Sequence record: OK254197.1
Strand: one strand, 5' to 3'
DNA: 64,000 nucleotides
Source of the DNA: Escherichia phage PNJ1902
The notes below the pieces were generated by a model, which saw only the letters and a program-made list of their open reading frames with translations, ran no database searches and was not told the origin of the DNA. Shown one piece after another: positions 3,749 through 63,408 of the stretch. The number at the start of each line of letters is the position of its first letter. The stretch's first letter is position 1. The translations under genes were made by a program, and so were the position numbers.

Positions 3749-5268
3749 ATATCGCTGGCCTGTTCACCTGTTGAATTTTCAGTTTTGTCTTTCTTAGCAC
3801 GTTTAGGTTGAGCTGGCTTATCCTTCTCAATAGGGATAACGAACTCAGCTTCCATTTGAGATATATCTTCCATTGCTAGGTTGGTAGTGTTATCCATTCG
3901 CAGAGTTTCCCAGTTCATTTTAGGCATAAACTTCACGCTATCAGAAGAACGAGTCTTAACGAAGTCAAACATAATAGCACCTTGACCATTATCAGCTTTT
4001 GCAGCATTAAGATTAGCAGCCATGTCAGCGGAATCAAGAATCCCCTTTGACATACGTGTTCTACCGTCTTGATCGATCTGGTAAGGAGCTACACCAGCCA
4101 CGTTATGTTTCTGGCAGATAGATTTGAAAGACGAGCTAACAACCATCTGTTCTTTCCAGTCATACATATCAATGGTTTTAGAGTCTGGAAGTCGGGTTTG
4201 GTTAATATAGTCCAGTAAAGCTACTGTAACTTTATCTCCATATCTAGCAACTAATTTATTTAGTTCTACGTCAACTGTTGTAATAGACAGCTCAGGGTCA
4301 TAAACAATAATCATAGGAGTATGTAGTTCATATCCCTCTATTAGCTTACTCTCCATATCGTAGAAATCGCTCATCTTAGCCATTGTGTACTGTTTAACGA
4401 AGCTATCGAAAAGCTCTTCACCTCCATTAAACATTCTAGCTCTAGTTCTGGCCAATCTCAACAGAGCTGCACCTTCTAGAGTATTATTACGCATTGCTAA
4501 TGCTGATACACCAGCTAACATGGCTAGATTACGTCTAAATACTTCATGTTCTTTCATCTCAATTGAGAAGTATGGAGCAATATCTCCATTCAAATATTGC
4601 TGAACCTGTATGTTTGAACAGATAATGGATTTACCAGTACCACGCCAACCACCAAGCAGTAACGTTTCTGTGCGAGCTAAACCAATTTGAGCGTCGAACT
4701 CATTACAAATACCAAGAGCGATTAAGTTCAGTTTGGTATCTTCTTCTCTCTGGAAAATACGCATGTTATCTGCGTTGAATACTTTTCCAGTATTCGTTAC
4801 TTTCTCTTCTAATTTTAAGTGAAGGGAGGCAACTCGGTTGAGAATTTCTCCCTGATCCAGCATTGTTAAATCTTGAAGCACGTCTGTTTCTAGAAGCTTC
4901 AGGAATAAATCCTGCGTATATTCGGCTTCTAGGACTTCAAGTGCCTGTTCCATGCTCACTTCTGGAATTTGAGTGTTAGCTAAGACGACTAGAGCTTGAG
5001 AAAGGCGGGCGTTCCTATTAGCTTCAAGCATAAGTGCGTCAATGGACGGCATTGTGTTATATTTTTTATAATAATTCTGGACGGCTTGGTAAATTGAGGA
5101 GAAAGCGTCATTAAAATGATCTTTATGCAGTTTTGAGAATGTTTCCAATGCTATTTGCTTCTGTTCGGAAGCTAGAAGCATCTTCAACACTACAGCTTGC
5201 ACGTTAAACAAGGTCATTCTCCTTTGCACGCTTTCGTGCCTTCTAAATGCAAAAAGGGGAAGGAGCAT
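3745..5268 (-). CDS. DnaB-like replicative helicase
   Basis: 507 aa; Walker A GGWRGTGKS; overlaps primase by 4 nt; RBS GGAGG upstream. Confidence 0.65.
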   Translation of the reverse strand: MLLPLFAFRRHESVQRRMTLFNVQAVVLKMLLASEQKQIALETFSKLHKDHFNDAFSSIYQAVQNYYKKYNTMPSIDALMLEANRNARLSQALVVLANTQIPEVSMEQALEVLEAEYTQDLFLKLLETDVLQDLTMLDQGEILNRVASLHLKLEEKVTNTGKVFNADNMRIFQREEDTKLNLIALGICNEFDAQIGLARTETLLLGGWRGTGKSIICSNIQVQQYLNGDIAPYFSIEMKEHEVFRRNLAMLAGVSALAMRNNTLEGAALLRLARTRARMFNGGEELFDSFVKQYTMAKMSDFYDMESKLIEGYELHTPMIIVYDPELSITTVDVELNKLVARYGDKVTVALLDYINQTRLPDSKTIDMYDWKEQMVVSSSFKSICQKHNVAGVAPYQIDQDGRTRMSKGILDSADMAANLNAAKADNGQGAIMFDFVKTRSSDSVKFMPKMNWETLRMDNTTNLAMEDISQMEAEFVIPIEKDKPAQPKRAKKDKTENSTGEQASDI

Positions 5269-5299
5269 AGCCCCCTCCCCTTAGGTTTAATTTACCAGA

Positions 5300-6067
5300 T
5301 TATTCAGCAGCCGCAGCTTTTGCATCCAGTTTAGCACGCTTAGCGGCACCATCATAGTCCTTAGCAACCAGACCACGACGAGACAGCATAGATTTAACAC
5401 CGCGCTCAGACTTACCAGTTTTCTCAGCGATCTCAGCAACAGTCATGTTAACCAGATCCAGACCTTCTAACAGATCTTCACGAGTTTTAGCACTTGAAGT
5501 TTCCTGTACCGGCATAGCAGCGATACGACCTTCACGAAGCAGGCTCAGAGCTTTACCACGGATCTGCTTGATATTACGACCGAAGTGAGCAGCGATAGCT
5601 TCAATAGTAGCACCAGCAACAACCTGATTAACAAAATCAGTTTCTTCATCCGGAGTAAAGGAACGAACAGCGGCAGCTTTTTCGGTTGGCTTAACAGAAG
5701 CGGTCATTTCCAGACTCAGGATCTTACCCTGTACCTGTTTAGCACCGAACTGACCACCAGCTACAGCAGCAGCGATTTCAGCATAGGTATACTGACCAGC
5801 ATGAGCGTTCAGGAAATCAACCAGTTCAGCTTCCTGCTCAGGAGTCCACGGGGATTTCTGTACTTCGTTAGCTTTTTGTACTTCAAAACCTTCTTTACGC
5901 AGTTTAGAGCCAACAGAGCGAGCAGTAACATCTTTGCCAGTTTCAGCAGCCAGTTCAGCAGCGATAGCAGCTACTTGTTCTTGAGAGATTACAGCAACAC
6001 CCAGAGCAGTGGCTTTTGCTTTCAGAGACTCAGTTACACCTTCTACGTTCCAGTTCAGTTTAGACAT
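5300..6067 (-). CDS. Ala/Lys-rich DNA-binding protein (T5 D5-like)
   Basis: 255 aa, repetitive Ala-rich composition; position between ligase and helicase as in T5. Confidence 0.4.
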   Translation of the reverse strand: MSKLNWNVEGVTESLKAKATALGVAVISQEQVAAIAAELAAETGKDVTARSVGSKLRKEGFEVQKANEVQKSPWTPEQEAELVDFLNAHAGQYTYAEIAAAVAGGQFGAKQVQGKILSLEMTASVKPTEKAAAVRSFTPDEETDFVNQVVAGATIEAIAAHFGRNIKQIRGKALSLLREGRIAAMPVQETSSAKTREDLLEGLDLVNMTVAEIAEKTGKSERGVKSMLSRRGLVAKDYDGAAKRAKLDAKAAAAE

Positions 6068-10305: not shown

Positions 10306-10548
10306 TTACGATTCCTTGAGCAAAGAAGCAAGTTCAGCATAGACTTTATCTAACTCAAAGCCGATGCGAAGAGACACGTTTGTTTTCCGTTGTTTAAGTA
10401 ACCACTCGGATATGTTAGGGATGCCAGCTAATCTATGTGGTACCACCCTACATAGCTTCTCCGAAGTGTCGTAAACAGGAACTTTACGCTCTTTTACTGG
10501 GAACTTCCTTGTTTCCCATTTTTTATTCTTCACTGTCATTTCTAGCAC
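10306..10548 (-). CDS. Hypothetical protein
   Basis: 80 aa ORF between PN25 region and helicase gene. Confidence 0.35.
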   Translation of the reverse strand: MLEMTVKNKKWETRKFPVKERKVPVYDTSEKLCRVVPHRLAGIPNISEWLLKQRKTNVSLRIGFELDKVYAELASLLKES

Positions 10549-13312
10549 CTAGCTCTGCCATTGCTTCATCATGCATATGTTTCTCCTCATCAGTCATAAA
10601 CTTATATGGGATTGGCATACACTCGATTTTACAATAGGTTCTGTACCAGTCTACAATATTCTCCGTGTTCATATCCTTACCAATACCCATCATACCAAGA
10701 TACATTCTCGCATATTTTGGGTTAGCACTCTGACCTGTTTTAAGGAAGAAATCTTTCTTCTTACCTTTCAGAGCTTCTATGAATGGTTTGATAGTGACAT
10801 TTGAACACTTCTTAATATCTTCCCAGAACATCTCGTGCATTTTATGGAAGAATGCCGCTCGATCATTCGGTTTATCTTTGATATATTGTTCAACGTGCTC
10901 AACTGTTACATCTTTAATAGACTCAAGATGATAGTAGCGAACAAGAAGTAGTTTAGCCTCATACGCATCTGCATGGCGTGGAGCACAATAATCAGGAGTT
11001 GAATACAAAATGGCTTTGATTCGCTCTTCCGTATACTCTTTTCCTGCACCTTCGATAGTTCCCCAGCTTTCACTGAAAATATCAATAGTTGCACCCTGAT
11101 CAAGCAAGTAATAACGTAAGGTACTAGTATAGTTTCTAGATTCCAGCTCTCTACGACGTGCGTATAATTGCTGTGCTAACTCCAGCCAACCTTCATCAAT
11201 GTTATATTGTTCAGAACCTGCGGAGAATCCACTCGTAGATTTATCAATAAAATAATAAATGTTCTGAGCGCCACGGTCGCGCCTGATTGCTTGGAAACGC
11301 ATGTTTGGCGCTTGGTTACTGGTTCTAGTAATAACGAATACGTTATCAAAGTAGTTGAAGTCAACGCCACTCGTTACGGATGGACTACATAATAAGCAAT
11401 CAATTTGTTGATCAATTAGCTCATTAGTTGTGTAATCCAGAATACGTCGAATATCTACATCAGACGTAGAATTTGAGTGGATTTCCTTAACTAGGGCACC
11501 TGTATTACGACGTAATGCCATACCCTTCTCATTCAGTTCATCCGGCCCACAGTCAGATACTAGGATAGATTTCTCACCCATCTCTAGAGAAGTCTGAAGT
11601 GCAACCCAAATACTGGATTCATCCGGGAACTCATAAGCATGAGCTTTTGACAGCATCTTACGGTGATGGTTGTAAAATGCAACCGGTTTATCAAAATCAA
11701 TTAGAGAACCGTAGGCTTCAATCGTCTCAGCACTAATATCACCATCAGATAAGATTACAGTTTTAGCTGTCATGAGGATGTCACGTAGAACTTGAATACA
11801 TTCGCGACGTTGTTTAACAACGGGGGCGAATAATAGATCATTCATTACAGCGTCACATTCATCAATAAAAATGGTGTCTATTTGACCAATAAAACTCTTG
11901 AACTTATGCAAAGAGTGAATAGTTGTGGACATACGGTCAATAGCGCCACGCTTAAAATTAAGCATATCTACAGACTTATCATATTGTCCTGCACTAAATT
12001 TCTTAGCATTTGAAGATACCAGCGCTCTAGTATTTGTAACTGCTAAAAAGTTGCCAGGAAGAACACCTGCGTCCAGCCATTTAGTTACTGCCGTAGTTTT
12101 ACCAGTACCAAGACTTGCCTTAACAAATGTTATATGGCCTTTTGGGGGCACAATGTTAATCTTCAGGTATGGAACTTCTGGTGGAGAATCCACTTCTAAT
12201 TTCTTGAGTGGAACACCTTTCAGATTTAATGGAATCTCACGTTTAGAATTATTAACAAACGCTTTGAGAGCCTGCTTGCGACCGTTATTAAAGTAATCTT
12301 GAATATTACGACTATTATCTTTAGTTGCAATATATTCAGATAAAGCGGGTTTAATCTCACGTTCTAGCCATGCGAAATCAACACCATCCTCTAATGCTCT
12401 ATGGTATAGTTTGGGGATAATACGCAAGTACACCCCATCCTCAGCTTCTTCCAATTCGCTGATGGTTTCTTCTACTTTATCAGACGCGATCTTTTTGCCT
12501 TTAATTTGGTCAAGTAAGGAATAGAATTCCTCTTTAAACTCTCCTCTAGTTGTTTCATAATCAACCAGATTATTGGGCAAATTTACCTTCGAACCTTTAA
12601 CATACACCAGACGTGGCTTACTCTCCGCTTTAAACGGATCTACAATACCATCGCTAAATAAAGGGTCGGCAAAATAGTGAAGCTGGACAGATGAATAATA
12701 AGCTAAGTCGGCAATGTCAAAACCGAATTTTTGCTTACTACTATCGTTGATGGATGTAAATAAGAACTTTAGCTGACCCTGAGTTACCTTGACGTTAGAT
12801 TCTAGCATTAAGTGCATTCGGATACCTGGTTTTAGGCCAGCCGAAGATGATGCATGAGCAATAAACCCTGCATCAAGAGGAAACATGTCCTCACTAATAC
12901 TATTCAACATCTTAATAATGTGGCGGGCCATGCCTACAAGATTAAACTTGTCGTACCCACCGGTATCTAGGATACCATCCACGTCCATAGCAATAATATT
13001 GCTGGGGTTGGATACATTAAAGTTACCTTTCTTACGCCGCACGTTATTTTTAGGTGCAAGACATCGACCTCGTACCGCAACGATATGAGGATCAGACGTT
13101 AAACGTCTCATAAGTGGTAACATTTCGGCAAGGCTTTGCGGGTCATGCTCTTCTATTACATCAAATTTGAAGGGCATAGAGGCTGGTTTACCTTCTGGAT
13201 GCTCTTTCGAGAATCGCTTGGCAAAGGTATAATCCTCCGCTTTGATTTCTCGCCAAATACCTGTTGCTAAATCACGAGAAAATCCGGCGTGACCTTGAAG
13301 AATAGAAAACAC
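10523..13312 (-). CDS. Large SF2-type helicase / putative replication-origin-binding protein
   Basis: 929 aa; Walker A GTGKTT, Walker B-like IFIDECD. Confidence 0.6.
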   Translation of the reverse strand: MFSILQGHAGFSRDLATGIWREIKAEDYTFAKRFSKEHPEGKPASMPFKFDVIEEHDPQSLAEMLPLMRRLTSDPHIVAVRGRCLAPKNNVRRKKGNFNVSNPSNIIAMDVDGILDTGGYDKFNLVGMARHIIKMLNSISEDMFPLDAGFIAHASSSAGLKPGIRMHLMLESNVKVTQGQLKFLFTSINDSSKQKFGFDIADLAYYSSVQLHYFADPLFSDGIVDPFKAESKPRLVYVKGSKVNLPNNLVDYETTRGEFKEEFYSLLDQIKGKKIASDKVEETISELEEAEDGVYLRIIPKLYHRALEDGVDFAWLEREIKPALSEYIATKDNSRNIQDYFNNGRKQALKAFVNNSKREIPLNLKGVPLKKLEVDSPPEVPYLKINIVPPKGHITFVKASLGTGKTTAVTKWLDAGVLPGNFLAVTNTRALVSSNAKKFSAGQYDKSVDMLNFKRGAIDRMSTTIHSLHKFKSFIGQIDTIFIDECDAVMNDLLFAPVVKQRRECIQVLRDILMTAKTVILSDGDISAETIEAYGSLIDFDKPVAFYNHHRKMLSKAHAYEFPDESSIWVALQTSLEMGEKSILVSDCGPDELNEKGMALRRNTGALVKEIHSNSTSDVDIRRILDYTTNELIDQQIDCLLCSPSVTSGVDFNYFDNVFVITRTSNQAPNMRFQAIRRDRGAQNIYYFIDKSTSGFSAGSEQYNIDEGWLELAQQLYARRRELESRNYTSTLRYYLLDQGATIDIFSESWGTIEGAGKEYTEERIKAILYSTPDYCAPRHADAYEAKLLLVRYYHLESIKDVTVEHVEQYIKDKPNDRAAFFHKMHEMFWEDIKKCSNVTIKPFIEALKGKKKDFFLKTGQSANPKYARMYLGMMGIGKDMNTENIVDWYRTYCKIECMPIPYKFMTDEEKHMHDEAMAELGARNDSEE

Positions 13313-17038: not shown

Positions 17039-18913
17039 TTATTTAGCTCGAATATCCTGATGTTTCACCCTGCCCATCACCTCGTGCTGTTTGCCGGGGT
17101 TAAATGGACGAGCACCCGGATTTCCAAGATACCCACAAACTCGACGAGTTACTTCAAGAGTTTCGGGGTCATGATTACCACAGATAGGGCACTTAAATCC
17201 ATCTTCGGATGCTATTGTTTCACCTAAGAATCCACATTTACCACAAGAATCCACTGGGGTATTAATACCGAAATAATGAACCTTACTAGCAGCATAATTA
17301 ATAACCCATTCCAGTGCATCTGGGAATCGTTTCATATCCGGTAGTTCTACATAGGAAATGCACCCACCAGAAGCAATAGGAGTAAAGTTAGATTCATAAT
17401 CAAATTTCACATTGGGAGCAACTTTACGTTCTACATCAAGGTGGTGCGAGTTAGTGTAGTATCCTTTGGACAGAATATCTTCATGCTCTGGGAAATATTC
17501 ACGGTCTAGACGACAAAAACGGTCACATAGGGATTCTGATGGTGTAGCATACAGGCTATAACCTAATTTAGTTTCTTCCTTCTTCTGATCGACTCTATCC
17601 CGCATGTATTGCAATACACGCTGAACAAACTTGATGCAGGTCTCGGACATTGTGTCTACCTCTTTGCCAAACATGAACTGTAGCATTTCATGGCAACCAA
17701 TATACCCTAGAGATACAGAAGCACGGTTATAGAAATGATCGAATACATATTCATCAGGCCCCAAGCGTAACCCAAAGGCTCCTGACATATAGAGGATAGG
17801 TGCAGCTTTAGCTTGAATGTATTTTAAGCGATCAACTCTCCATTCCAACGCTTTTAATGCTGTATCCACACGTAGCTCAAGCAAATCAAAGAATAGATCA
17901 ATATTTCCTTCAGCTTCGATAGCAATTCTAGGCAAGTTTACAGAAACAACACCTAAGTTATTACGACCGGCAGTTTCACCATCTTCTGTAGCAGCTAGGA
18001 ATGAACGGCAGCCCATAGAAACTTTGTAGTCTCCAGTAACCTCTACAACCTTGTCATAGCTGATATAATCTGGATACATACGTTCAGCAGTACATTTCAT
18101 AGCTAACTTCTTGATGTCATAATTAACATCTCCTGGTTTCATATTTACTCCATCACGAAGTACAAATACCAGTTTCGGGAAGATAGCTGTACGTTTATTG
18201 ATACCTAAACCATCCATGCGTACTTTCAGTATTGCTTTCTGTACTAGACGTGCTTCCCAAGAAGTTCCTAGACCAAAACCAAAGGTAATAAATGGACTCT
18301 GACCATTAGAGTTGAACATGGTATTGATTTCATATTCTAAACCCTGACAAGCGTCATAGACTTCTTTTTCAGTCATCTCCGTAGCCATTACGGATGCTTT
18401 GGCTTCATCCTTAGTCCAACGTTTTGCAAACGCATGATTTTTATCATAGGATTTACGTACATAAGGGGCTAATACTTCATCAAGGCGATCTACAGAAGTA
18501 CCACCATACTGATGGGAGCTAACCTGAGTGATAATCTGAGCAGTAATAGCCGCCGCAGTAGTGATAGAGTTTGGAGTGCTAATTTCAGCATTACCAACCT
18601 TCATACCATTCTTCAACATATCTTCCAGAGCTACCAGACAACAGTTAGTCATACCTAATGCAGCATAATCAGCATCATGGAAATGAATATCCCCAATCAT
18701 ATGAGCATTTCGAATCTGAATTGGCATTTCTTCTAGAATCAGATACTTACTCAATTCACCTGCAAGCATATCCCTTTGTGTAGGGAAACGTTCTGAGGGT
18801 TTATTAGCATTATTAAACAGCAGCTCTTCATCTGCTGACCCTTCGATAATCTCTTTGCAGTTTCTAATTAACGCCTGCATTTCTTTATACTTTAATTCTT
18901 CATTGCGATTCAT
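17039..18913 (-). CDS. nrdD: Anaerobic ribonucleoside-triphosphate reductase (class III)
   Basis: 624 aa; C-terminal glycyl-radical motif RVCGYLG and Zn-ribbon CGKCGF...CPICG. Confidence 0.8.
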   Translation of the reverse strand: MNRNEELKYKEMQALIRNCKEIIEGSADEELLFNNANKPSERFPTQRDMLAGELSKYLILEEMPIQIRNAHMIGDIHFHDADYAALGMTNCCLVALEDMLKNGMKVGNAEISTPNSITTAAAITAQIITQVSSHQYGGTSVDRLDEVLAPYVRKSYDKNHAFAKRWTKDEAKASVMATEMTEKEVYDACQGLEYEINTMFNSNGQSPFITFGFGLGTSWEARLVQKAILKVRMDGLGINKRTAIFPKLVFVLRDGVNMKPGDVNYDIKKLAMKCTAERMYPDYISYDKVVEVTGDYKVSMGCRSFLAATEDGETAGRNNLGVVSVNLPRIAIEAEGNIDLFFDLLELRVDTALKALEWRVDRLKYIQAKAAPILYMSGAFGLRLGPDEYVFDHFYNRASVSLGYIGCHEMLQFMFGKEVDTMSETCIKFVQRVLQYMRDRVDQKKEETKLGYSLYATPSESLCDRFCRLDREYFPEHEDILSKGYYTNSHHLDVERKVAPNVKFDYESNFTPIASGGCISYVELPDMKRFPDALEWVINYAASKVHYFGINTPVDSCGKCGFLGETIASEDGFKCPICGNHDPETLEVTRRVCGYLGNPGARPFNPGKQHEVMGRVKHQDIRAK

Positions 18914-18942: not shown

Positions 18943-18971
18943 ATTATAACTCATTCGAGGGCGGATGTCAA
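18943..18971 (-). promoter_or_regulatory. Consensus sigma70 promoter for nrdD
   Basis: RC: TTGACA-17-TATAAT. Confidence 0.7.
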
Positions 18972-19022
18972 CAATATTTTACTATAAAGTTCTGTAACAT
19001 GATCTGAGTCAAAAAATTTTAT

Positions 19023-19051
19023 TTGCCAATCTCTATTAAAAATTGTATAAT
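19023..19051 (+). promoter_or_regulatory. sigma70 promoter
   Basis: TTGCCA-17-TATAAT. Confidence 0.55.
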
Positions 19052-22820: not shown

Positions 22821-23966
22821 ATGACTACTTTACTAAACCTGAATTGGGATCATACTAACGCTGACCTTTTCCTGGGAGATTCTCTCGGTATCGCAGATTA
22901 TGTACGTGTAGCACACCCAGAACTAGAACGTCTAGCACTTTTGCAACGCTCTCAATTTTGGACTGAAACTGAAATCAGTCTAGAAGCAGATAAGAAACAA
23001 TGGCCTAATCTCCCACGTGAAATTCAGGAAATTACACTCCTGAACTTAGCATGGCAGACTCAAACTGATTCCTTTATCAGTCGTGCTCCTGAAGCAGCTA
23101 TTATGCCGCTTGTAAGTCGTCCAGAATTGGAAGGTATGCTCAAACAGTGGAGCTATTTTGAAGACCTGCATAGTCGTGCTTATAGCAATATTATTCGTAA
23201 TGTGCTAACTGATCCAGCAGAATTTATTGATTCTGTAACCAAAAACCAAGAAGCATTCGCACGCATCGCTGATTCTGTTGAACTATTCGATGAACTGTAC
23301 CAGTTAGGTCAGTATTTCATCGCAGTACGCGATCATCGTGGTGACAATACATATCCAGAAACTGAGTTCCCTGAAGTTAAACGTGAAACTCAGGCTAAAC
23401 TATTAGACGCTTACTTTGCGATCTACGGTCTGGAAGCAATGCAGTTTTACGCATCCTTTGCATGTACCTTTGCATTAGCAGAAAACGATATTCTGCAAGG
23501 TATTGCTAAAAATCTGCAATTAATCGCTAAAGATGAAGCTCTGCACACTCAGATGTCCAAAGCAATCATCCAGATTATGTTTCAACAATTTGACAAAGAT
23601 CTGGTAGAGGAAGCAGTGGCTAAAGCACCAGCACAGCTCCTGAAAACTCTGAAAACTGAAATTGAATGGGGTCATTTCATTTTCAAAGGTCGTAGTCTGA
23701 TTGGCTTGAATGCAGAACTTCTAGAAGAATATCTGTACTTTGTGGGGCGTAATGCATTTATGCACATCGGTGTAGAATGGCCAAGTAACCTGCCGGTAAT
23801 CACCAAGAACCCTATTCCATGGATCATGAACTGGTTGGATACCACTTCTTTACAGCCTGCTCCACAAGAAATCCAGATTGGTGCAGCATATCGTGTAGGT
23901 CAGGTAACTGAGACCTCTACTGATACTCTGAAAGATCTGGGCAATGAATTTGGAGATTTCTTATGA
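22821..23966 (+). CDS. nrdB: Ribonucleoside-diphosphate reductase small subunit
   Basis: 381 aa; di-iron ligand pattern and position after nrdA. Confidence 0.8.
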   Translation: MTTLLNLNWDHTNADLFLGDSLGIADYVRVAHPELERLALLQRSQFWTETEISLEADKKQWPNLPREIQEITLLNLAWQTQTDSFISRAPEAAIMPLVSRPELEGMLKQWSYFEDLHSRAYSNIIRNVLTDPAEFIDSVTKNQEAFARIADSVELFDELYQLGQYFIAVRDHRGDNTYPETEFPEVKRETQAKLLDAYFAIYGLEAMQFYASFACTFALAENDILQGIAKNLQLIAKDEALHTQMSKAIIQIMFQQFDKDLVEEAVAKAPAQLLKTLKTEIEWGHFIFKGRSLIGLNAELLEEYLYFVGRNAFMHIGVEWPSNLPVITKNPIPWIMNWLDTTSLQPAPQEIQIGAAYRVGQVTETSTDTLKDLGNEFGDFL

Positions 23967-32657: not shown

Positions 32658-33605
32658 ATGTTTGCTACTAAAAACACTAAAGAACTGACTTATGAGCAAA
32701 AATTAATGCGTAATATCAAACGTTGGGGTATTGGGGCTGCAGTTGGTTTGGTAGGTTTAGTTCTGGCTCTTAACTCTTACACTGTTGTTCAAGACGGTAC
32801 TGTTAAAACCCAGACTTTCCTGGGTAAAGTTGACCCTAGCCCAGTATTACCCGGCTTTCATATTGTAAATCCTTTTGCTTCTTTCGATACTTTTAGTACT
32901 AAAGATATTGCTCTAAAATTAGATAAACTTCAGGTTCCTAGTCAGGATAAGTTTAAATCCACTGTTGACCTGACTGTTATGTTGCAGTTTGATGGTTCTA
33001 AGGCACCGATTAACCGTATTAATGCAGGTACTCAGGATCAAGCATTAGACAAATATGTAACTGAAAAATTACTGTCTACTATTCGTGAGTTTGGTAAGTC
33101 TGTACCTAAAGCACAAGATTTATTTGATGCTAAAATTCAGGCTCAATTGCAAACCGCAATTCAACAGGAAGTTGAAGAGTATGCACGCCCATATGGTTAC
33201 ACAGTTAAGCAGGTGTTTCTTCAGGATATTACTTTGCCACCGGTAATCATGGAACAGGTACAGAATACCAAAGTTCGTGAAGAGCAAGTTAACGCTGCGA
33301 AAGCTGAACTTGCCCGCGTTGAACAGGAAGCACAGCAAAAAGTTAAACAAGCAGAAGCAGATCGTGAAGCTCGCAACAACCAAGCTATTGCTAATGAACG
33401 TGACGCAGATGCTAAACTGTACGCAGCTAAGAAAGAAGCTGAAGCTAACGCCGCACTGCAACGTACCATTACTCCTGAGATGATTCGTTGGAAACAACTG
33501 GAAGTTGAAATGATTCGTGCTCAGAAGTATCAAGGTGGTGTACCTCAGACTGTAGTTGGCACTGGCTATGATGGTCAAATGATTATGGATATGCGTAACA
33601 AGTAA
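32658..33605 (+). CDS. SPFH/band-7 (prohibitin-like) membrane protein
   Basis: 315 aa; N-terminal TM helix, SPFH-like core, C-terminal Ala/Gln/Glu coiled coil. Confidence 0.55.
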   Translation: MFATKNTKELTYEQKLMRNIKRWGIGAAVGLVGLVLALNSYTVVQDGTVKTQTFLGKVDPSPVLPGFHIVNPFASFDTFSTKDIALKLDKLQVPSQDKFKSTVDLTVMLQFDGSKAPINRINAGTQDQALDKYVTEKLLSTIREFGKSVPKAQDLFDAKIQAQLQTAIQQEVEEYARPYGYTVKQVFLQDITLPPVIMEQVQNTKVREEQVNAAKAELARVEQEAQQKVKQAEADREARNNQAIANERDADAKLYAAKKEAEANAALQRTITPEMIRWKQLEVEMIRAQKYQGGVPQTVVGTGYDGQMIMDMRNK

Positions 33606-33630
33606 TAGTTACACGTAATCTTCGAACTAA

Positions 33631-33662
33631 GCCCGCGTTTTCTCCGAGAGCGCGGGCTTTTC
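33631..33662 (+). terminator. Intrinsic terminator
   Basis: GCCCGCG...CGCGGGC hairpin + TTTT. Confidence 0.7.
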
Positions 33663-33683
33663 TGTATTTAAGGCAAAAGAAAA

Positions 33684-33712
33684 AGCCCCTAAGTCTTTCG
33701 ACTAGGGGCTTT
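33684..33712. terminator. Bidirectional hairpin terminator candidate
   Basis: AGCCCCTAAG...CTAGGGGCT flanked by A-run upstream and T downstream; lies between convergent genes. Confidence 0.5.
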
Positions 33713-33929
33713 ACTGTTTGGTTCTTTAGAACCATATACTCTTGTTACAGCAACCACCCATACGGGAGGCCAATCTTGACTGAAAATCTACTCTAGGGGG
33801 CAGGATAAGAGTAGGCTTAAAGGCAAACGGATTGAACGCCGGTATTTGCGTAAACATTGCTGGAGAGCAACAACGTGCTACAGGCATTGGGCAGCACGAA
33901 ACAGATTTTCTGCAACACATAATTCCTCC

Positions 33930-34346
33930 TTAGGAGTTATTACCACCATTTTGAGCTTTTGCAACTTGGCTTTGGCAGAAGCTATTAAACTTACCCATAA
34001 GTGATACAAGCTGCTTCCCATCCTCTGTCTTTGCGAAGTCTTCGAAAAGGGCTAGTACTGCCTGTCCTTCCGCAGAAACCTGCGGTTGTTGGGTTTGTTG
34101 CTGAACTTGCTGCTGCGGCATCTGTTGCTGCATTTGTTGGGGCATTTGCGACTGCCCGCTCATTTGCTGCATCATTTGCATAGGACTCACACTTCCAGGG
34201 TTTTGCTGGAGTTGTTGCTGCATCTGTTGCGCTTCTGCTAAACGCTGTTGCAATTGTTGTAAGTAGGGGTTATCCAGACCCGGAATGGGCTGCTGGGAGC
34301 CCATACTTTGATTAAGTCCGTTATTTACAAAACCATATTTACTCAT
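33930..34346 (-). CDS. Gln-rich low-complexity protein
   Basis: 138 aa; long Q/M-rich repeats. Confidence 0.45.
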   Translation of the reverse strand: MSKYGFVNNGLNQSMGSQQPIPGLDNPYLQQLQQRLAEAQQMQQQLQQNPGSVSPMQMMQQMSGQSQMPQQMQQQMPQQQVQQQTQQPQVSAEGQAVLALFEDFAKTEDGKQLVSLMGKFNSFCQSQVAKAQNGGNNS

Positions 34347-47988: not shown

Positions 47989-48687
47989 ATGAGGATTATT
48001 TCTAAGTTCGCCGATGTGTATGATTTGCAGAACAGTTTGTTCGACCCAGATCGTGTGTGGGAACGTAAAACTGAGGAGTTACTGGTTAAAGTAACTGATG
48101 ATGCAGAAAAGAACATTGTGCATACTCGCCAGGTATTTCGTGATGGTTCGCTATCTTTCCATGGTGATTTCGAATATTTTGTAAACCCACTATTTGTTGC
48201 AGGTGAAGTTTACTGGTTACACGAGCTGTACTGCTGGCATCCAGCATTTAGCTTCAAAACGTTTAATCTCGACACTATGTTCGATAAAATGGAAGAGATG
48301 GGATTGCATGCTCGCTCTTACTTAATGGATAAGAGTCGTGGAGATGTTCGTGAAACAATGCGTGATTTGCTCGCTGAAGCAAAACCTAAAGCAGAACGTA
48401 TCTTATCCGAACTGCGTGTACCGATTGCATATGTGAAAGGTATTAAAAAGAACGATAACGATGATGTTCGTAACTTCGTGATTCAGACTAACATTCGTTT
48501 CCATCAGTCAGGTATTCCGTGGCAGGAAATTGAAAGTAACTTATACCGTTTACACCAAGTTCTCGAACAGTATATCTTCGGTGTACTAGGAACTGGTGAG
48601 CCTGATATGATTAAAGTATCAGATAAAGACAGGTTAGCAGCGCATGGATTTGATACAAAAACTTCTTTCAGGAATATGGCACGGTAA
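47989..48687 (+). CDS. Hypothetical protein
   Basis: 232 aa ORF with RBS AAGAGGA. Confidence 0.6.
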   Translation: MRIISKFADVYDLQNSLFDPDRVWERKTEELLVKVTDDAEKNIVHTRQVFRDGSLSFHGDFEYFVNPLFVAGEVYWLHELYCWHPAFSFKTFNLDTMFDKMEEMGLHARSYLMDKSRGDVRETMRDLLAEAKPKAERILSELRVPIAYVKGIKKNDNDDVRNFVIQTNIRFHQSGIPWQEIESNLYRLHQVLEQYIFGVLGTGEPDMIKVSDKDRLAAHGFDTKTSFRNMAR

Positions 48688-49093
48688 GTGGTATATCCTG
48701 GGAGCAGGTCTAGCGATAGGCATCGGGTTCGGTGCTTATCACTTAGTAGATAGAGTGGAGACTTTAGCGGGAGATCTTGCAGTAGCTACTAAAAAGATCT
48801 CTTCTCTAGAGACTTCCCTTAATAAGGTGAAAGCTGAAAGCGAACTTCGTGAGACTAGAATGAATCAGTATTTCACAATGAATAATATTTCGCAAGCAGA
48901 TCTAGACAAAAAGATTAAGCAGCTAGATAAAGCTCTTAGTCGTCAAGATGTTATCGCTGCAAAGCCTGGATTGGTAACATTAATTGCTAAAAAGCAGAAT
49001 AAAGAGTTCGAGGAAAGATTAGCATGTTTAACTGGAAACTTGGAGTACTGCTCGCAGCCACAATCACAATCACAGGCTGTGCAGAAGAAATAA
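48644..49093 (+). CDS. Membrane-anchored coiled-coil protein
   Basis: 149 aa; N-terminal TM helix. Confidence 0.45.
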   Translation: MDLIQKLLSGIWHGKWYILGAGLAIGIGFGAYHLVDRVETLAGDLAVATKKISSLETSLNKVKAESELRETRMNQYFTMNNISQADLDKKIKQLDKALSRQDVIAAKPGLVTLIAKKQNKEFEERLACLTGNLEYCSQPQSQSQAVQKK

Positions 49094-58041: not shown

Positions 58042-58245
58042 ATGCAAGTATATGTACTTACTAGAGATATAAATGAGTATAATCAGGATGGTGAATATTT
58101 TGTAAAGGTATTCGCTGAAAAGCCAAGTAAACAACAATTATTAGATGCTGGAGTACCAGAAGACCAGGCTAAGTGTATACTACAAGATAAAGAATTTACT
58201 GGTGATGCTTACGAATGTTTCTACCTTAGCTGTGAGAATATCTAA
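58042..58245 (+). CDS. Hypothetical protein
   Basis: 67 aa from ATG 58042. Confidence 0.45.
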   Translation: MQVYVLTRDINEYNQDGEYFVKVFAEKPSKQQLLDAGVPEDQAKCILQDKEFTGDAYECFYLSCENI

Positions 58246-58246
58246 T

Positions 58247-58693
58247 ATGAGAGAAAAAGTAAATGAATTACTAATCGAGGAAGCTAACAACTTTCCAATA
58301 AACAGGTTTATCAAATCGGATGGATCTATTAATAGAACTAAGATTAAGCAGCTACATCCTGACTTTCAACAAGAAGCACTAAACCTTATATTTATCAAGA
58401 AAGCTATTGCAGTTCATGGAGCTTTCTTTGGATATGAGCGTGTAAATTACAAAACAATGCAACAGCAAGTCGAGATCTATTGTCCAGATCATGATGGTTA
58501 TTACTGGCAAACTGCTAGATCTCATTTAGAAGGGCATGGTTGTCGACTGTGTGCACACAAGGTTGTGCAGCGTGTCACAGATTATGGAACCTATACCGTA
58601 CCAGCATGTTATCATAAATTTGTAGTTGACGATAATCATATAGTTTGGTATAATAAGTTTTCAAAGTTAAGAATGGAGATAAATAGTGAGTAG
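58247..58693 (+). CDS. Hypothetical protein, paralog of N-terminal half of 60714-61442
   Basis: ~148 aa; shared stretch KQLHPDFQQEALNLIFI...GYERVNYKT...QTARSHLEGHGC. Confidence 0.55.
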   Translation: MREKVNELLIEEANNFPINRFIKSDGSINRTKIKQLHPDFQQEALNLIFIKKAIAVHGAFFGYERVNYKTMQQQVEIYCPDHDGYYWQTARSHLEGHGCRLCAHKVVQRVTDYGTYTVPACYHKFVVDDNHIVWYNKFSKLRMEINSE

Positions 58694-59382: not shown

Positions 59383-59996
59383 TGTTTACACAACAACCTA
59401 TTCAAGTAGTACCAGACCATGAACTGAACACATGGGATTATAGCTTTAAAGATTTAATTGCTACTGTACAATTCAAATCTATGAAGCTAACATTTGCACA
59501 CAATGACCTTAGAGCCTGTAAAGATCTTGAAAGTAAGCTCGAAGATGCTCGTAAGATTTTTGGCAAGGCTCGCATCCCAGCTGATAATCTAATTAACGCA
59601 TTAATCGATGCAGGGTACAAACTTGTGAAGACTGAGGTGAACCGCCCTAGTACTCCAGTGACTATTAGAGATCCGTGGCAGTCAGGGACAATCTCAATGC
59701 TGAATAACTCCGATAAAAGATTAATGTCGGATTTGCACAATGTTCCTTGTGGGGGTGTGGTAAGTAGTACGCAGTCATATAAGTTTGCGGAAGATTACGG
59801 CCCTTCTGTACAGTTGAAACATACTCAAGAAGCTTTTGAATCTGATATGCAAAGCGTAGCACCTGCGGATGCTGGAGTTTCTAGGAGTTCTGTTTGTACT
59901 ATTCATTTTAATAATCCTAGTAAACATGGAAGTTTAGAGGATGCTATTATGGAGGCGTTGGGAGCTGCTCTTAATGAAGATAAGAGAGGTAATTAA
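59382..59996 (+). CDS. Hypothetical protein
   Basis: 204 aa ORF. Confidence 0.55.
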   Translation: MFTQQPIQVVPDHELNTWDYSFKDLIATVQFKSMKLTFAHNDLRACKDLESKLEDARKIFGKARIPADNLINALIDAGYKLVKTEVNRPSTPVTIRDPWQSGTISMLNNSDKRLMSDLHNVPCGGVVSSTQSYKFAEDYGPSVQLKHTQEAFESDMQSVAPADAGVSRSSVCTIHFNNPSKHGSLEDAIMEALGAALNEDKRGN

Positions 59997-60721
59997 TGAG
60001 TATAAAAAAGAATTTAGCAGAGATTATTAAGTTAGCTAGAGCTTGTAATGGGAAATATGTTTCTCAGCTTAATGAACTAGAGGCACATGCAGTAGCATTT
60101 TGTGCAGAGTTTTATCCTGCATACCTTAATGCTAGTGGACAGCCCAAATATAATAAAGATGCAGGAGAAGTTACGTTAGCTCCTTCATATATTAGCTTGC
60201 GTCGTCTAATCCAAACTGTTGATCCTACTATTAAAGGATTCTCAGCAGATTCATTCCACGTCTTTGCAGATAAAGAACTCCCGTATTTTAAAGAAGGAAA
60301 TGCAAAGTCATGTTTAGAATGTTATCCAAATATTCTGATGATTCCTCAAAAGCAATGTAAATACGATCATCTTCCTAGACTTACAAAGAAAGTAGAACCA
60401 CCTTATTCTTCTCTATCTGAATTAAAGCTAGGAATTGTATCTACACTTGCGCAGGTTCATCTAAGTATAGTTGACGACTCAACAACATCTAATCCTATTC
60501 TAGATGCTGCACACTTTGAAATTTTACGTGATCCTGAACAAGCTAGAAAAGTTGCAAAGTCTGTTAAGTTTGATATATCAACAATTCTTGACACTAAACA
60601 AGAAACTAGACCTAGAGGAAGTGTAGATTATTCTGCACTAAATTCCGAGTCATCTTATTTAGCAACATTCCTTTTCATGGCGTCAAAAGGGGTTATTCTA
60701 AAGGTTAATAAAGATGGATGA
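59996..60721 (+). CDS. Hypothetical protein
   Basis: 241 aa ORF. Confidence 0.55.
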   Translation: MSIKKNLAEIIKLARACNGKYVSQLNELEAHAVAFCAEFYPAYLNASGQPKYNKDAGEVTLAPSYISLRRLIQTVDPTIKGFSADSFHVFADKELPYFKEGNAKSCLECYPNILMIPQKQCKYDHLPRLTKKVEPPYSSLSELKLGIVSTLAQVHLSIVDDSTTSNPILDAAHFEILRDPEQARKVAKSVKFDISTILDTKQETRPRGSVDYSALNSESSYLATFLFMASKGVILKVNKDG

Positions 60722-61442
60722 TTTACGTGCTGAAATTAATAAAAAGCTACGCGAGGAAGCCAGGAGGTTTCCTCTTAAAAACTTTTTGAAGTCAAATGGC
60801 TCTACTAATATAACGAAGATTAGGCAACTTCACCCTGACTTCCAACAAGAGGCCTTAAACCTTATCTTTATTAGGAAAGCTTTAAAAGTCCAGAAAGAAG
60901 AGTATGGGTATGAAAGAGTTAATTATAAGACAGCCAATCAGTTAGTAGAGATATGGTGCTATAAACACAAAGGATACTTTATGCAAACTGCTAGATCTCA
61001 CCTAGATGGGCACGGTTGTTTACAATGTGCTAGAGAAAGCAACCTCAATACACCTATCGAGAAACCGGAAGTAGAAGAAGATGTTCAGTTCCCCACATAT
61101 CTCTATATCTTCTCTAATAAAGATCAGTCTAGGAAGAAATTAAAGACAAAGATTGGGGTTTCTAGAGAGCCACATCAAAGGTTTAAGAATCTAGAGTATG
61201 ATAAATTACGTGTGCCGGGTTTTGAAGATATGGAAGTATTTGGTATCTACCAATATAAGAAAGGATCGAAAGAACTCGCTTACAAAATAGAACACCAAGC
61301 ACATAAATTTTTCGAGAATAAATTTGCTAATCATTATAAATTCGATGGAGCAAAAGAGATATTCAACATTAAAGCTGTAGAGGCAGAAGAATATCTATTA
61401 AGTCAAGGTTGCATAAAAATTTACCCAACTCCAAACTCATGA
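60714..61442 (+). CDS. Two-domain protein: N-terminal domain paralogous to 58247-58693 plus C-terminal T5orf172 (GIY-YIG-like) domain
   Basis: 242 aa; C-terminal YLYIFSN...KIGVSREP...RFKNL motif. Confidence 0.55.
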   Translation: MDDLRAEINKKLREEARRFPLKNFLKSNGSTNITKIRQLHPDFQQEALNLIFIRKALKVQKEEYGYERVNYKTANQLVEIWCYKHKGYFMQTARSHLDGHGCLQCARESNLNTPIEKPEVEEDVQFPTYLYIFSNKDQSRKKLKTKIGVSREPHQRFKNLEYDKLRVPGFEDMEVFGIYQYKKGSKELAYKIEHQAHKFFENKFANHYKFDGAKEIFNIKAVEAEEYLLSQGCIKIYPTPNS

Positions 61443-61469
61443 CAAAAATTTAAAAGTAACGAAATTTGC

Positions 61470-61499
61470 TTGACATTCGTGAGAATAATGTGTTATAAT
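61470..61499 (+). promoter_or_regulatory. Consensus sigma70 promoter firing into the repeat locus
   Basis: TTGACA-18-TATAAT, no ORF downstream. Confidence 0.55.
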
Positions 61500-61851
61500 A
61501 ATCTCATAGATTAAAAACATCAACTTGTTTTTACCTCTAGGCCGTAGATTTACATCATTCCTCGTAGGAAAACACTTGATGACGGTTCTGCTCGCAGGTT
61601 CTCGTCAATTGTTCTTCCACACCGAGACTTAGGAGGATGTATCAAATCGCACGCGCCTAGAGGGGCTAACTCTCATGAAATGGGGGTATATTTACTTTTA
61701 AATAACTAAAAATATTTAAAGGCAATATCTGTGTTCAAGATGATACACCGGTTGCCTCTCATCTGCTAGGATGGCACAACACTTTCTCCTAGACTCCTAA
61801 GTTTCTAGGAATAGTTGAACACTACCTCTAGCGTTTACACTAAACTTTAAA

Positions 61852-62587
61852 TCGGATTTGCACATGTTCTAGGGCAGTTTTTCACCTACTATAAATATCC
61901 TAGGCCGGTTTTCCTATACAGGGCGGTTATGGGGAGGGCGGTTATTTCTAGACAACATTTTTTGAAAACACATTTCTGGATTTTACTGTCGGATTTGCAC
62001 ATTGTGTTTCTAGAAATTTATGGTCGGATTTGCACAATTGCCTAAGTTTTTAGGAACATATAATCTCCTGAAAATGGCAGCATTATTTCGGGCCGAAGGC
62101 CCATGTTTGCCTGAGTTTTTGGAGCCACAGAAATTTTCACTTGTCAAACTATTTTGCCCCATTTTGCTAATAAAATTTTACTTTATCTCCTCTAATCTCA
62201 AATTAACCTAAATCTTCTCAACTCTTCCCCAAAATCCCCGCAAATCGGGTGCCCCGCACCAAACATGCGCCCCTCCAGTTTCTCCTCTTATTTTCTCTCG
62301 CTCTCTCATCTTCTCCCCAAACCCACACAATCACACACCCTCCAATCGAAGTCACAAAAATCTTGTCGGATTCGCACATCTTAATCCTAGAAAAACCATG
62401 TCGGATTTGCACATACCCCACAGGATTCGAACGCAGTTCGTGATTGCTGGAGTTTTTGGGAAAATTCATTGTCGGATTTGCACACTATAAAAATTTTTCG
62501 GGTCGGATTTGCACACTACCAAAAATTGTCGGATTCGCACATACACGCCCGCACGTAACACCCGTGGAGCAATGTCGGATTTGCACA
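61852..62587 (+). repeat. Array of 9 direct repeats GTCGGATT(T/C)GCACA
   Basis: Copies at 61852, 61988, 62023, 62365, 62400, 62471, 62502, 62528, 62574, all same orientation. Confidence 0.8.
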
Positions 62588-62616
62588 AAAGCGCAGGGCA
62601 ATTGCCCTGCGCTAAA

Positions 62617-62830
62617 ATACGAATGATAATAAGAATCATTCTCATTTAAAAAGCGGAATGAGAATGATAATAATTCGCATTTAGAAAGTGAAATGATAAT
62701 CATTATCATTTAAAAAGCGGAATGATTCTCATTTAAGAAGTGAAACGATTCTCATTTAAGAAGTGAAACGATTCTCATTTAGAAAGTGAAATGCAAATGA
62801 TAATGATTCTCATTTAAGAATGGAAGTGAG
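62617..62830 (+). repeat. Tandem ~22-bp repeats (GATTCTCATTTAAGAAGTGAAAC-like)
   Basis: At least 8 imperfect copies; two identical adjacent units around 62727-62772. Confidence 0.7.
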
Positions 62831-62847
62831 AAACACTATTATTTAAG

Positions 62848-62929
62848 TTATCCACAGACTTATCAACAGCACGATTTGACTTGACAAAATTCTAGCCGTT
62901 TTGAAGCGTTATCAACAGACTTATCCACA
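62848..62929 (+). promoter_or_regulatory. Cluster of four DnaA-box-like 9-mers
   Basis: TTATCCACA at 62848 and 62921; TTATCAACA at 62860 and 62909; same orientation. Confidence 0.55.
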
Positions 62930-63150
62930 GCTTATCCTACTGTATAAATATACAGTATTCCTACGCAGCGAATAATTCTAATATACCGCTAAAACGCTCT
63001 CAAACGCATTCTAACGCGTTTAATTTTGTTGGGGATACTAAAACAAGGGCAAAATTGGAGGAGGCTTGAAAATTAGTTAGCCCGCTAACGATCACACAAG
63101 GCGACACGTAACACCCTAACCATTAGCAGGCTAACCATCGCGGGCGCGGT

Positions 63151-63173
63151 CAAATGAGAATGATTCTCATTTG
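63151..63173. repeat. Perfect 23-bp palindrome
   Basis: CAAATGAGAAT-G-ATTCTCATTTG. Confidence 0.7.
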
Positions 63174-63213
63174 AGAATTGGGGGCACTTCCAGATAGTTG
63201 CGCCCCGTGATTA

Positions 63214-63408
63214 TTAGTCGGGTAGTCGATGCGTGATTTTTTCCTCCTCCCCATAGGAATCTACCAAATACTGATAATAACCATCGTGATCATAAATCAC
63301 TTTATCATAATCGCCACGCTCGACCGCTTGTCGGTTTTCCGGCGTATCGGGCACGTAAAAAATATCAACCATTGTACTAGTTTTGGTTACAACAATTTTA
63401 TTGCTCAT
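63214..63408 (-). CDS. Hypothetical protein
   Basis: 64 aa ORF beyond the repeat locus. Confidence 0.4.
   Translation of the reverse strand: MSNKIVVTKTSTMVDIFYVPDTPENRQAVERGDYDKVIYDHDGYYQYLVDSYGEEEKITHRLPD

Follow-up and report, generated by a model that had tools for sequence, protein, structure and literature searches.

We examined a window of 64,000 nucleotides (nt) from Escherichia phage PNJ1902 (sequence record OK254197.1), which is a T5-like phage (Tequintavirus); positions are those of this whole stretch unless another phage is named. Judging from the sequence, we put at about 60% the probability that a functional promoter at 61470-61499 drives a discrete, independently transcribed gene for a structured small RNA of ~170-200 nt, extending from 61506 to ~61699 on the plus strand. 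This reading is carried by a conserved promoter, a fold kept in eight sequence types, a strand asymmetry in folding, the lack of coding capacity and the absence of an entry in Rfam or in the annotations checked. The features of the promoter and of the RNA unit are as follows.

61470..61475, plus strand: -35 hexamer TTGACA (most relatives have TTGACA or TTGACG, and the type C promoter version has TTGCAT)
61491..61499, plus strand: extended -10 element, TGt-TATAAT, with TG at 61491-61492 and TATAAT at 61494-61499
61506..61699, plus strand: predicted small non-coding RNA of type A, ~194 nt, from the fold and a covariance model, with predicted ends
61512..61533, plus strand: P1, 5′ hairpin of 8 base pairs (bp) in the predicted fold
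61534..61663, plus strand: P2, long irregular hairpin of 130 nt and ~50 bp, its base CCUCUAGGC paired with GCCUAGAGG
61669..61699, plus strand: P3, terminator-like hairpin (61669-61687) followed by the U-rich tail UAUAUUUACUUUU

The promoter and the predicted RNA

More than 450 T5-like phage genomes have a match to the region 61300-63300, the nearest being those of Salmonella phages SP01, PH204 and Spc35 (93-95% identity). The plus strand of the window corresponds to the minus strand of T5 and Spc35 and runs leftward in T5 coordinates. The gene order is a tRNA cluster (21 tRNAs), the leftward early genes, an untranslated region and the pre-early genes, which are found on the minus strand from 63214 on and are convergent with the promoter. 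The inner end of the left terminal repeat is placed by homology at approximately 62115-62125, using the repeat (LTR) ends of Spc35 (9573), T5 (10219), BF23 (9743) and Stitch (9982). The promoter lies ~650 bp and the RNA unit ~420 bp outside this repeat, the latter right after the last leftward early gene.

The promoter begins 27 nt past the stop codon of 60714-61442, the last open reading frame (ORF) on the plus strand. The interval that follows (61443-63213; ~1.77 kb) contains only ORFs of 83 amino acids (aa) or fewer, none of which gave a match in Pfam and PHROG searches, and no coding sequence (CDS) is annotated in the homologous interval of three T5 records. The first-pass annotation had noted ~1.7 kb without a plausible ORF, and these results bear it out. 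Davison (bioRxiv 10.1101/866236) described the interval as 1662 bp of untranslated DNA with 97 stop codons; the words "promoter" and "transcript" never occur in that text.

All 12 positions of the sigma-70 hexamers are matched at 61470-61499, with an 18-nt spacer ending in TGT, where base composition predicts ~0.1 such sites per 64 kb. Weaker promoter-like matches in the region are at the level of chance (35 found, versus 28.8 ± 5.6 in shuffled sequence). The TTGACA-18-TATAAT arrangement that had been reported at this site is present, together with the TG of an extended -10 element; it is not uniquely the window's closest match to the consensus, as had been claimed, because the minus strand has another 12/12 site, whose spacer is of the optimal 17 bp. 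The latter (TTGACA-17-TATAAT; 18943-18971, -35 at 18971) stands before a 624-aa ORF (17039-18913). An 11/12 site on the plus strand (19023-19051) is situated back to back with it, and the divergent sites at 18943-19051 are probably the counterpart of the divergent P12/P15a region of T5.

Seventeen distinct versions of the promoter were collected from T5-like loci in IMG/VR, metagenomes and GenBank. In every one the -35 hexamer is TTGACA, TTGACG or TTGCAT, the -10 hexamer is TATAAT or TATCAT, and the spacer is 17-18 nt long and ends in ATGT, the rest of the spacer being unrelated between versions. Since the hexamers and the TG are kept while the spacer drifts freely, the promoter is under selection. 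The -10 hexamer, the 6-nt discriminator and the leader starting with A (A-U-A/G-x-A/G-U-U) have the same layout as in the annotated early promoters of T5, and on this resemblance we place the probable start at A61506, seven nt after the -10 hexamer. The promoter differs from the T5 early promoters in having a consensus -35 rather than TTGCTT. The upstream A-tract and the ATATT discriminator which Klimuk et al. ascribe to early promoters are both absent from it.

When the region is aligned with T5, Spc35 and SP01, the promoter and the sequence from 61734 on align; the ~190 nt between the two are wholly different in T5, with the same run of five G residues and U-rich ending. The predicted RNA fold of 61506-61700 has a minimum free energy of -64.2 kcal/mol (z-score -5.8), and the T5 counterpart, whose sequence cannot be aligned with it, folds to -63.9 kcal/mol (z -6.3) with the same three-hairpin architecture. 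At a G+C content of 41%, the fold of 61506-61699 ranks in the top 0.6% of the window, with 27 of 4254 sliding 194-nt segments on both strands as stable. P3 consists of eight pairs, three of them G-C and three G-U (ΔG -7.2 kcal/mol), with an interruption in its tail, and was flagged as terminator-like by a consensus scan. The promoter had initially been described as lacking a coding target. No ORF follows it, but it does have a target, namely the structured RNA unit directly downstream, which has a terminator-like end ~190 nt on.

The RNA unit is non-coding. Members of type A differ by a 1-nt insertion or deletion that breaks a 35-aa ORF with a TTG start (61525-61632) in Spc35, and a recurrent 8-codon mini-ORF in P3 (of the MKWGYIYF type) is lost in types E and G; these micro-ORFs were rejected as the product on those grounds. 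No family match was found for the ORFs of the unit in Pfam or PHROG. Searching Rfam 15 at permissive thresholds gave best scores of 13-17 bits for the unit of the window, against gathering scores of 39-60, and no match for the T5 version; at gathering thresholds only tRNAs were recovered from the whole window.

Several other roles were considered and rejected. A cis-antisense RNA or a type I toxin-antitoxin system is not indicated, the sole ORF on the opposite strand (61550-61645) being of 31 aa, non-hydrophobic and non-conserved. Nor is a trans-acting base-pairing RNA indicated: complementary sequence was sought in 5,426 E. coli genomes, elsewhere in the window, across T5 1-50 kb and over the 1.9 kb following each type, and only matches at chance level came up, short seeds not being covered by this search. 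A 17-nt match of the T5 RNA to T5 10,320-10,336 (E 0.004 in the local region) was dismissed as it is present in only some type D genomes. A terminated leader awaiting antitermination was discarded because the next ORFs are convergent and no gene reads in the direction of the promoter for 1.7 kb. Finally, a perfect 12-nt inverted repeat around the promoter and the RNA (61448-61459 and 61692-61703) co-varies in SP01 and not in SP3/SE11, and is probably due to chance.

In the T5 record NC_005859 about thirty promoters are listed for the first 50 kb, along with many terminators and eight "stable RNAs with unknown functions"; each of these RNAs belongs to the tRNA cluster (28-41.5 kb). On the minus strand, the positions of the promoter (10,851-10,879) and of the RNA (10,844-10,645) bear no annotation. 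The records of T5 ATCC, T5 st0, BF23 (2023), DT57C, Stitch and twelve others have either nothing or obviously spurious small CDSs at the unit. Neither the promoter nor the RNA is mentioned in the T5 and BF23 literature examined; the older promoter maps of the Bujard laboratory lie outside this set, and the promoter may have been detected in vitro earlier.

Eight sequence types of the unit

At least 36 unique versions of the unit were obtained, and these represent at least eight sequence types (A-H), the window being of type A, and T5 and Bas33 (HildyBeyeler) of type D. The eight types occupy the same site in Tequintavirus and Epseptimavirus and are, for the most part, unalignable with one another. 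All eight possess a long hairpin followed by a terminator-like hairpin, and seven of them a separate 5′ hairpin, which is missing from type H in the fold from its assumed start. P2 ranges from 95 to 149 nt and from 35 to 53 bp, with an apical sequence that is unalignable across the types. The z-scores of the types lie between -3.8 and -7.1, and none of 150 dinucleotide shuffles was as stable. The run of five G residues followed by a U-rich tail is kept throughout, and the apical loops vary freely (within type A: CUCG, UUCG, UUUG, GUA and UCC). The strongest argument for an RNA is that the ~130-nt helix persists while its sequence gets replaced.

The sense strand folds better than the antisense strand, by 2-15 kcal/mol, in all 25 unique sequences, each structure of which contains two to seven G-U pairs; taken together, these two observations favour an RNA over a DNA cruciform. 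Among the eight type D sequences, 99.8% of the 567 pair cells hold standard pairs and a single cell is broken. Three two-sided changes are seen (U-A to C-G, A-U to U-A and A-U to G-C), as well as three one-sided changes, which go to or from a wobble pair. Control structures in which the partner was slid by 1-3 columns gave zero to one two-sided changes. In P1, three pairs covary across types B, C, F and G.

A covariance model built from types B, C, F and G only matches the window at exactly 61506-61699 (56 bits, E 1.4e-11) and recovers type E over its full length (E 4e-6). With this model, neither the rest of the window nor T5 1-50 kb gave a match.

The promoter, body and terminator also occur in mixed combinations. 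DT57C (loci L024/L076) carries a type C promoter version and a type B RNA body, locus L044 a type B body with a type A terminator, and locus L064 a type F body with a type B terminator; the AT-rich linker of 35-40 nt past the terminator exists in three alternative forms. These mosaic cassettes and linker forms point to recombination among promoter, body and terminator modules. In type D loci such as that of T5 (L003), a conserved 8-bp hairpin (GTCTCGGT..ACCGAGAC), which is absent from the type A arrangement of the window, is located between the T5.018 stop codon and the promoter. With this hairpin the upstream gene in type D ends before the promoter, and on this basis we regard the RNA as an independent unit.

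Tequintavirus and Epseptimavirus genomes yielded the unit, as did related metagenomic contigs. Motif scans of IMG/VR, of metagenomes and of 185,579 species genomes returned only T5-like phages or chance AT-rich matches, and those in bacterial genomes were rejected by the covariance model. The flanking proteins used as anchors in this survey are restricted to Markadamsvirinae, which places the more distant Demerecviridae outside the sample. GGA motifs resembling CsrA sites were noticed by eye; types A, D and H have several of them, whereas they are few in B, C, F and G.

Mode of action and alternative explanations

Two ORFs precede the promoter on the plus strand.

59996..60721, plus strand: fast-evolving early gene, PHROG 8993; the T5 counterpart by position is T5.018 (PHROG 8583)
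60714..61442, plus strand: homing-endonuclease ORF of the T5orf172 type, between the PHROG 8993 gene and the promoter; absent in Spc35

The PHROG 8993 proteins found beside types A and E are 50% identical, those beside B and F 72-83% and those beside C and G 61%, while the remaining type pairs show 32-51%; the pattern mirrors that of the RNA types in which basal P2 sequence is shared. By comparison, the product of the gene one further along (PHROG 5271) is 57-97% identical across the same phages. The congruence between protein and RNA could be explained by linkage alone. Types D and H adjoin T5.018 instead, which weakly resembles the N-terminal half of the PHROG 8993 family, with some motifs alike (hhalign probability 6.8%). 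The PHROG 8993 protein has no Pfam match and no relative in the PDB, and its homologues were found in T5-like phages only. Endonuclease-type paralogues are present at 58145-58693 and 60714-61442; they share an N-terminal PHROG 4605 domain, the T5orf172 domain being found only in the second. At type B loci a different endonuclease-like ORF, of 118 aa, occupies the gene-RNA junction.

The RNA gene is not carried on the first-step DNA and is among the first sequences to enter as second-step transfer resumes. As the promoter is outside the terminal repeat, it has yet to enter the cell while injection pauses and cannot act on the pause itself. With its consensus -35 and extended -10, it should be readable on entry by unmodified host sigma-70 polymerase. 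The RNA might then work in trans by means of its shape, binding a protein or serving as a decoy for one, and not by base pairing; the long P2 helix may be processed by RNase III. Such shape-based action on a protein, whether as binding partner or as decoy and perhaps after RNase III cleavage, is proposed tentatively; it is suggested by the lack of an antisense target, by the free apical sequence on a kept helix and by the co-divergence with the early gene. It is doubtful, though conceivable, that the RNA and the hypervariable early protein (PHROG 8993/T5.018) form a type-specific ribonucleoprotein (RNP) governing the exit from the pre-early state, or that a read-through form of the RNA helps to make the terminal repeat.

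Downstream of the unit the following features were found.

61734..62130, plus strand: conserved non-coding block with GGGCGGTTAT iterons, CTAG motifs and three TCGGATTTGCACA copies, from an alignment of 43 relatives
62075..62122, no strand assigned: nearly invariant hairpin, GGCAGC..GGGCCGAAGGCCC..UGCC, between an A-run and a U-run
62150..62400, plus strand: C-rich, G-poor untranslated tract, GC skew -0.63 to -0.74, just inside the terminal repeat
61852..62588, no strand assigned: nine TCGGATTTGCACA direct repeats (T5 "direct repeat D"), spanning the repeat boundary
62847..62931, no strand assigned: two pairs of DnaA and DnaA-like boxes (TTATCCACA, TTATCAACA) in the injection-stop region

The direct repeats and DnaA boxes which the first-pass annotation had placed downstream of the promoter are all there, the boxes at 62847-62870 and 62908-62931. 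An AT-rich repeat block occupies 62600-62850, and this block, the iterons and the DnaA boxes lie 1.1-1.4 kb downstream of the promoter. The hairpin at 62075-62122 is almost invariant in the 43 relatives and is 0-10 bp from the inner boundary of the terminal repeat, making it a candidate bidirectional terminator or a signal tied to repeat formation. A C-rich, G-poor composition is that of a Rho loading site, and the tract at 62150-62400 looks Rho-loading-like on the strand of the promoter; on the opposite strand this tract is G-rich. The block at 61734-62130 may be the body of a read-through transcript. The long-range pairing predicted in 61700-62130 joins CUGCUAGGAUGGCACAACACUUUCU with GGGCGGUUAU iterons and includes many G-U pairs. 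Upstream of the invariant GGGCGGTTATnGGGAGGGCGGTTAT, phages differ in having one to five copies of the GGGCGGTTAAT(A) iteron (loci L065, L044 and L080).

A number of points weigh against a discrete RNA with the function outlined above. The start site, the 3′ end (within the U-rich tail) and the abundance of the RNA are predictions, and the RNA may be longer given the weak terminators with interrupted U-tracts: P3 measures only -2.4 to -8.7 kcal/mol in all seven types other than C, where it reaches -18.3, and terminator-like matches across the whole window are no commoner than in shuffled sequence. Covariation within any single type is thin and its statistics modest, and the double changes in type D split the sequences 4:4 and may go back to one event in one lineage. 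Types D and H are missed by the covariance model, so that the case for all eight types being homologous depends on their shared position, promoter, architecture and 3′ signature. The 5′ leader, although conserved, is common to ordinary T5 mRNA promoters; it is uninformative on the function of the RNA and is no specific seed. The protein-binding or decoy mode is argued by exclusion only, and the PHROG 8993 protein, which gave no functional clue and has an unusable AlphaFold model (pLDDT 54), was set aside as the RNA-binding partner. Lastly, the plus strand also folds better than shuffled sequence beyond the unit, in 61700-62130, and its antisense does not (z -3.45 versus -0.35).

This last asymmetry would suit a longer transcript of ~620 nt, from 61506 to ~62125, acting at the repeat boundary in repeat duplication, concatemer cutting or the resumption of transfer. 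In T7, which offers an analogy only, pausing of transcription at the concatemer junction has been linked to DNA maturation. The weakness of P3, the invariant hairpin with its A- and U-runs next to the boundary, and the one-sided changes in the predicted long-range pairing, which are mostly A-U to G-U, agree with such a transcript. We nevertheless hold it improbable, because RNAalifold finds two-sided changes in only three of the 59 pairs predicted in 61700-62130 (covariation term -0.9), because strand-asymmetric folding can come from G/T-rich repeats alone, and because the conserved motifs are iterated and variable in copy number, as protein-binding iterons often are. Going further, transcription itself could be what matters, by activating or clearing an origin-like or protein-bound locus as it passes through the repeats and DnaA boxes, or by yielding RNA antisense to the pre-early operon that helps to silence it, the structured 5′ part being a leader that possibly modifies the polymerase. 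Transcription-activated origins are established for phages λ and T4; here the promoter aims into 1.7 kb of iterons and DnaA boxes towards convergent pre-early genes, its first terminator is weak, and its arrival with the second-step DNA only would be a natural timer. Some read-through past P3 is plausible, since P3 is weak and its U-tract interrupted. However, because P3, the boundary hairpin with its U-run and the 250-nt C-rich tract all intervene, the main product is unlikely to be a transcript that extends as far as the DnaA boxes. Moreover, a 130-nt helix kept through eight types would be needless for mere read-through, no genes in the same orientation are found downstream, and the origins of T5 have been mapped near the centre of the genome (Davison, bioRxiv 10.1101/866236). 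We consider this explanation unlikely. The first-pass annotation had allowed for a non-coding RNA, which is supported, although as a discrete product of ~190 nt and not of 1.7 kb; a transcript through the repeats and DnaA boxes is not supported as the main product, given the three termination signals.

Two further explanations dispense with a dedicated RNA gene. The unit might be the 3′ end module of the leftward early operon, serving as terminator, stabiliser or RNase III site in the manner of λ sib or the T7 R sites, with the promoter secondary. There is no terminator between ORFs 59996-61442 and the unit, so early mRNAs should enter it; the unit co-diverges with the upstream gene; and long near-perfect helices are substrates of RNase III. 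It is hard to reconcile with such a module that the hexamers and TG are conserved against a drifting spacer in all promoter versions, that in type D a separate hairpin follows the upstream stop codon ahead of the promoter, and that homing-endonuclease genes have inserted between gene and unit with the promoter-RNA cassette undisturbed; on balance it seems to us a doubtful account of the unit. Those same insertions alongside, in a region full of palindromes and repeats with presumed roles at the DNA level, could instead be taken to mean that the long inverted repeat acts as DNA (a cruciform, a protein-binding palindrome or a target for recombination or an endonuclease), promoter and terminator being incidental. 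This we regard as very improbable: the sense strand folds better in every sequence compared, DNA would have mismatches in place of the two to seven G-U pairs, the three one-sided changes in type D all permit wobble pairing on the sense strand alone, and the arms are wholly different from type to type, where a protein site would keep its sequence and not just its pairing.

Relation to known systems and significance

The unit invites comparison with the stable RNAs of T5 (RNAI, RNAIII, RNAIV, RNA1, RNA2, RNA2H, RNA3 and RNAX; NC_005859), which are likewise T5-encoded, non-coding (~70-720 nt) and without an assigned function. Those RNAs are embedded in tRNA operons, whereas the unit is located at T5 10,645-10,879 with its own promoter and terminator-like end, and a BLAST search with the T5 unit against T5 1-50 kb revealed nothing similar. 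Elsewhere in the window, other stable 194-nt folds (-64 to -76 kcal/mol) were recorded at 5127-5440 and 22917-23140 on the minus strand and at 33541-33830, 34051-34300 and 48571-48850 on the plus strand; some of these folds are in or near the tRNA cluster and may be T5 stable RNAs not covered by Rfam. On the minus strand at 63040-63260 is the most stable 200-nt fold of the window (-83.9 kcal/mol, z -6.4), where it adjoins the 3′ side of the last pre-early ORF (63214-63408, minus) in the region homologous to T5 iss, and it could be a 3′ untranslated region structure, a terminator or another RNA.

The λ pR′-tR′ "6S" transcript is 194 nt long. Like the unit, this transcript and the put RNAs of HK022 combine a strong promoter needing no phage factors with a structured RNA (~190 nt) and then a terminator, but they are leaders of downstream operons reached by antitermination, and the unit has no genes in the same orientation for 1.7 kb. 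No Q- or put-like elements were seen at the unit, no search aimed at them having been made. The packaging RNA (pRNA) of the φ29 family is ~170 nt long, lies near the end of the genome, is made from a strong early promoter and diverges in sequence while its structure is kept. The unit resembles it in size, in its strong promoter and in diverging sequence with a kept fold. The pRNA serves a terminase-less, protein-primed packaging motor, while T5-like phages use a conventional terminase, and Rfam, which includes pRNA, gives no match to the unit. Bacterial 6S RNA is similar in size (~185 nt) and in being a largely double-stranded rod, and by analogy a polymerase-titrating role early in infection is conceivable. 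In 6S RNA, however, the 5′ end is paired with the 3′ end, and an open promoter is mimicked by a large bubble at the centre; the unit has separate end hairpins and no conserved bubble is predicted. The 6S model (RF00013) did not match it, even at E up to 10.

The injection-stop/repeat region of T5 (Heusterspreute et al. 1987, as cited by Davison, bioRxiv 10.1101/866236) is the same interval, 1.66-1.77 kb in length with the same repeats and DnaA boxes. The literature on it treats the interval as cis-acting DNA; the unit is its right-hand 250 bp, outside the terminal repeat. Phage-encoded small RNAs are familiar elements, and the sequence evidence points to a new family of them in a classic model phage.

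The left-end untranslated region of T5 has been studied for almost 40 years purely as cis-acting DNA. If the RNA is expressed, it would be a new gene product at the border of the first-step and second-step DNA; if it is not, the conservation of the promoter and of the fold would need an explanation at the DNA level. Recent T5 papers describe the restart of transfer and the shut-off of the pre-early genes as still poorly understood. The existence of eight types with a kept fold beside a fast-evolving neighbour is the pattern expected of determinants of host interaction or competition. Were the RNA part of an RNP module, that module would be first expressed on entry of the second-step DNA, and its roles could include pre-early shut-off, protection of the incoming DNA, and exclusion of, or competition with, T5-like phages or host defences. 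Either that reading or the one involving a read-through form would, if true, add an RNA player to the two-step infection of T5.

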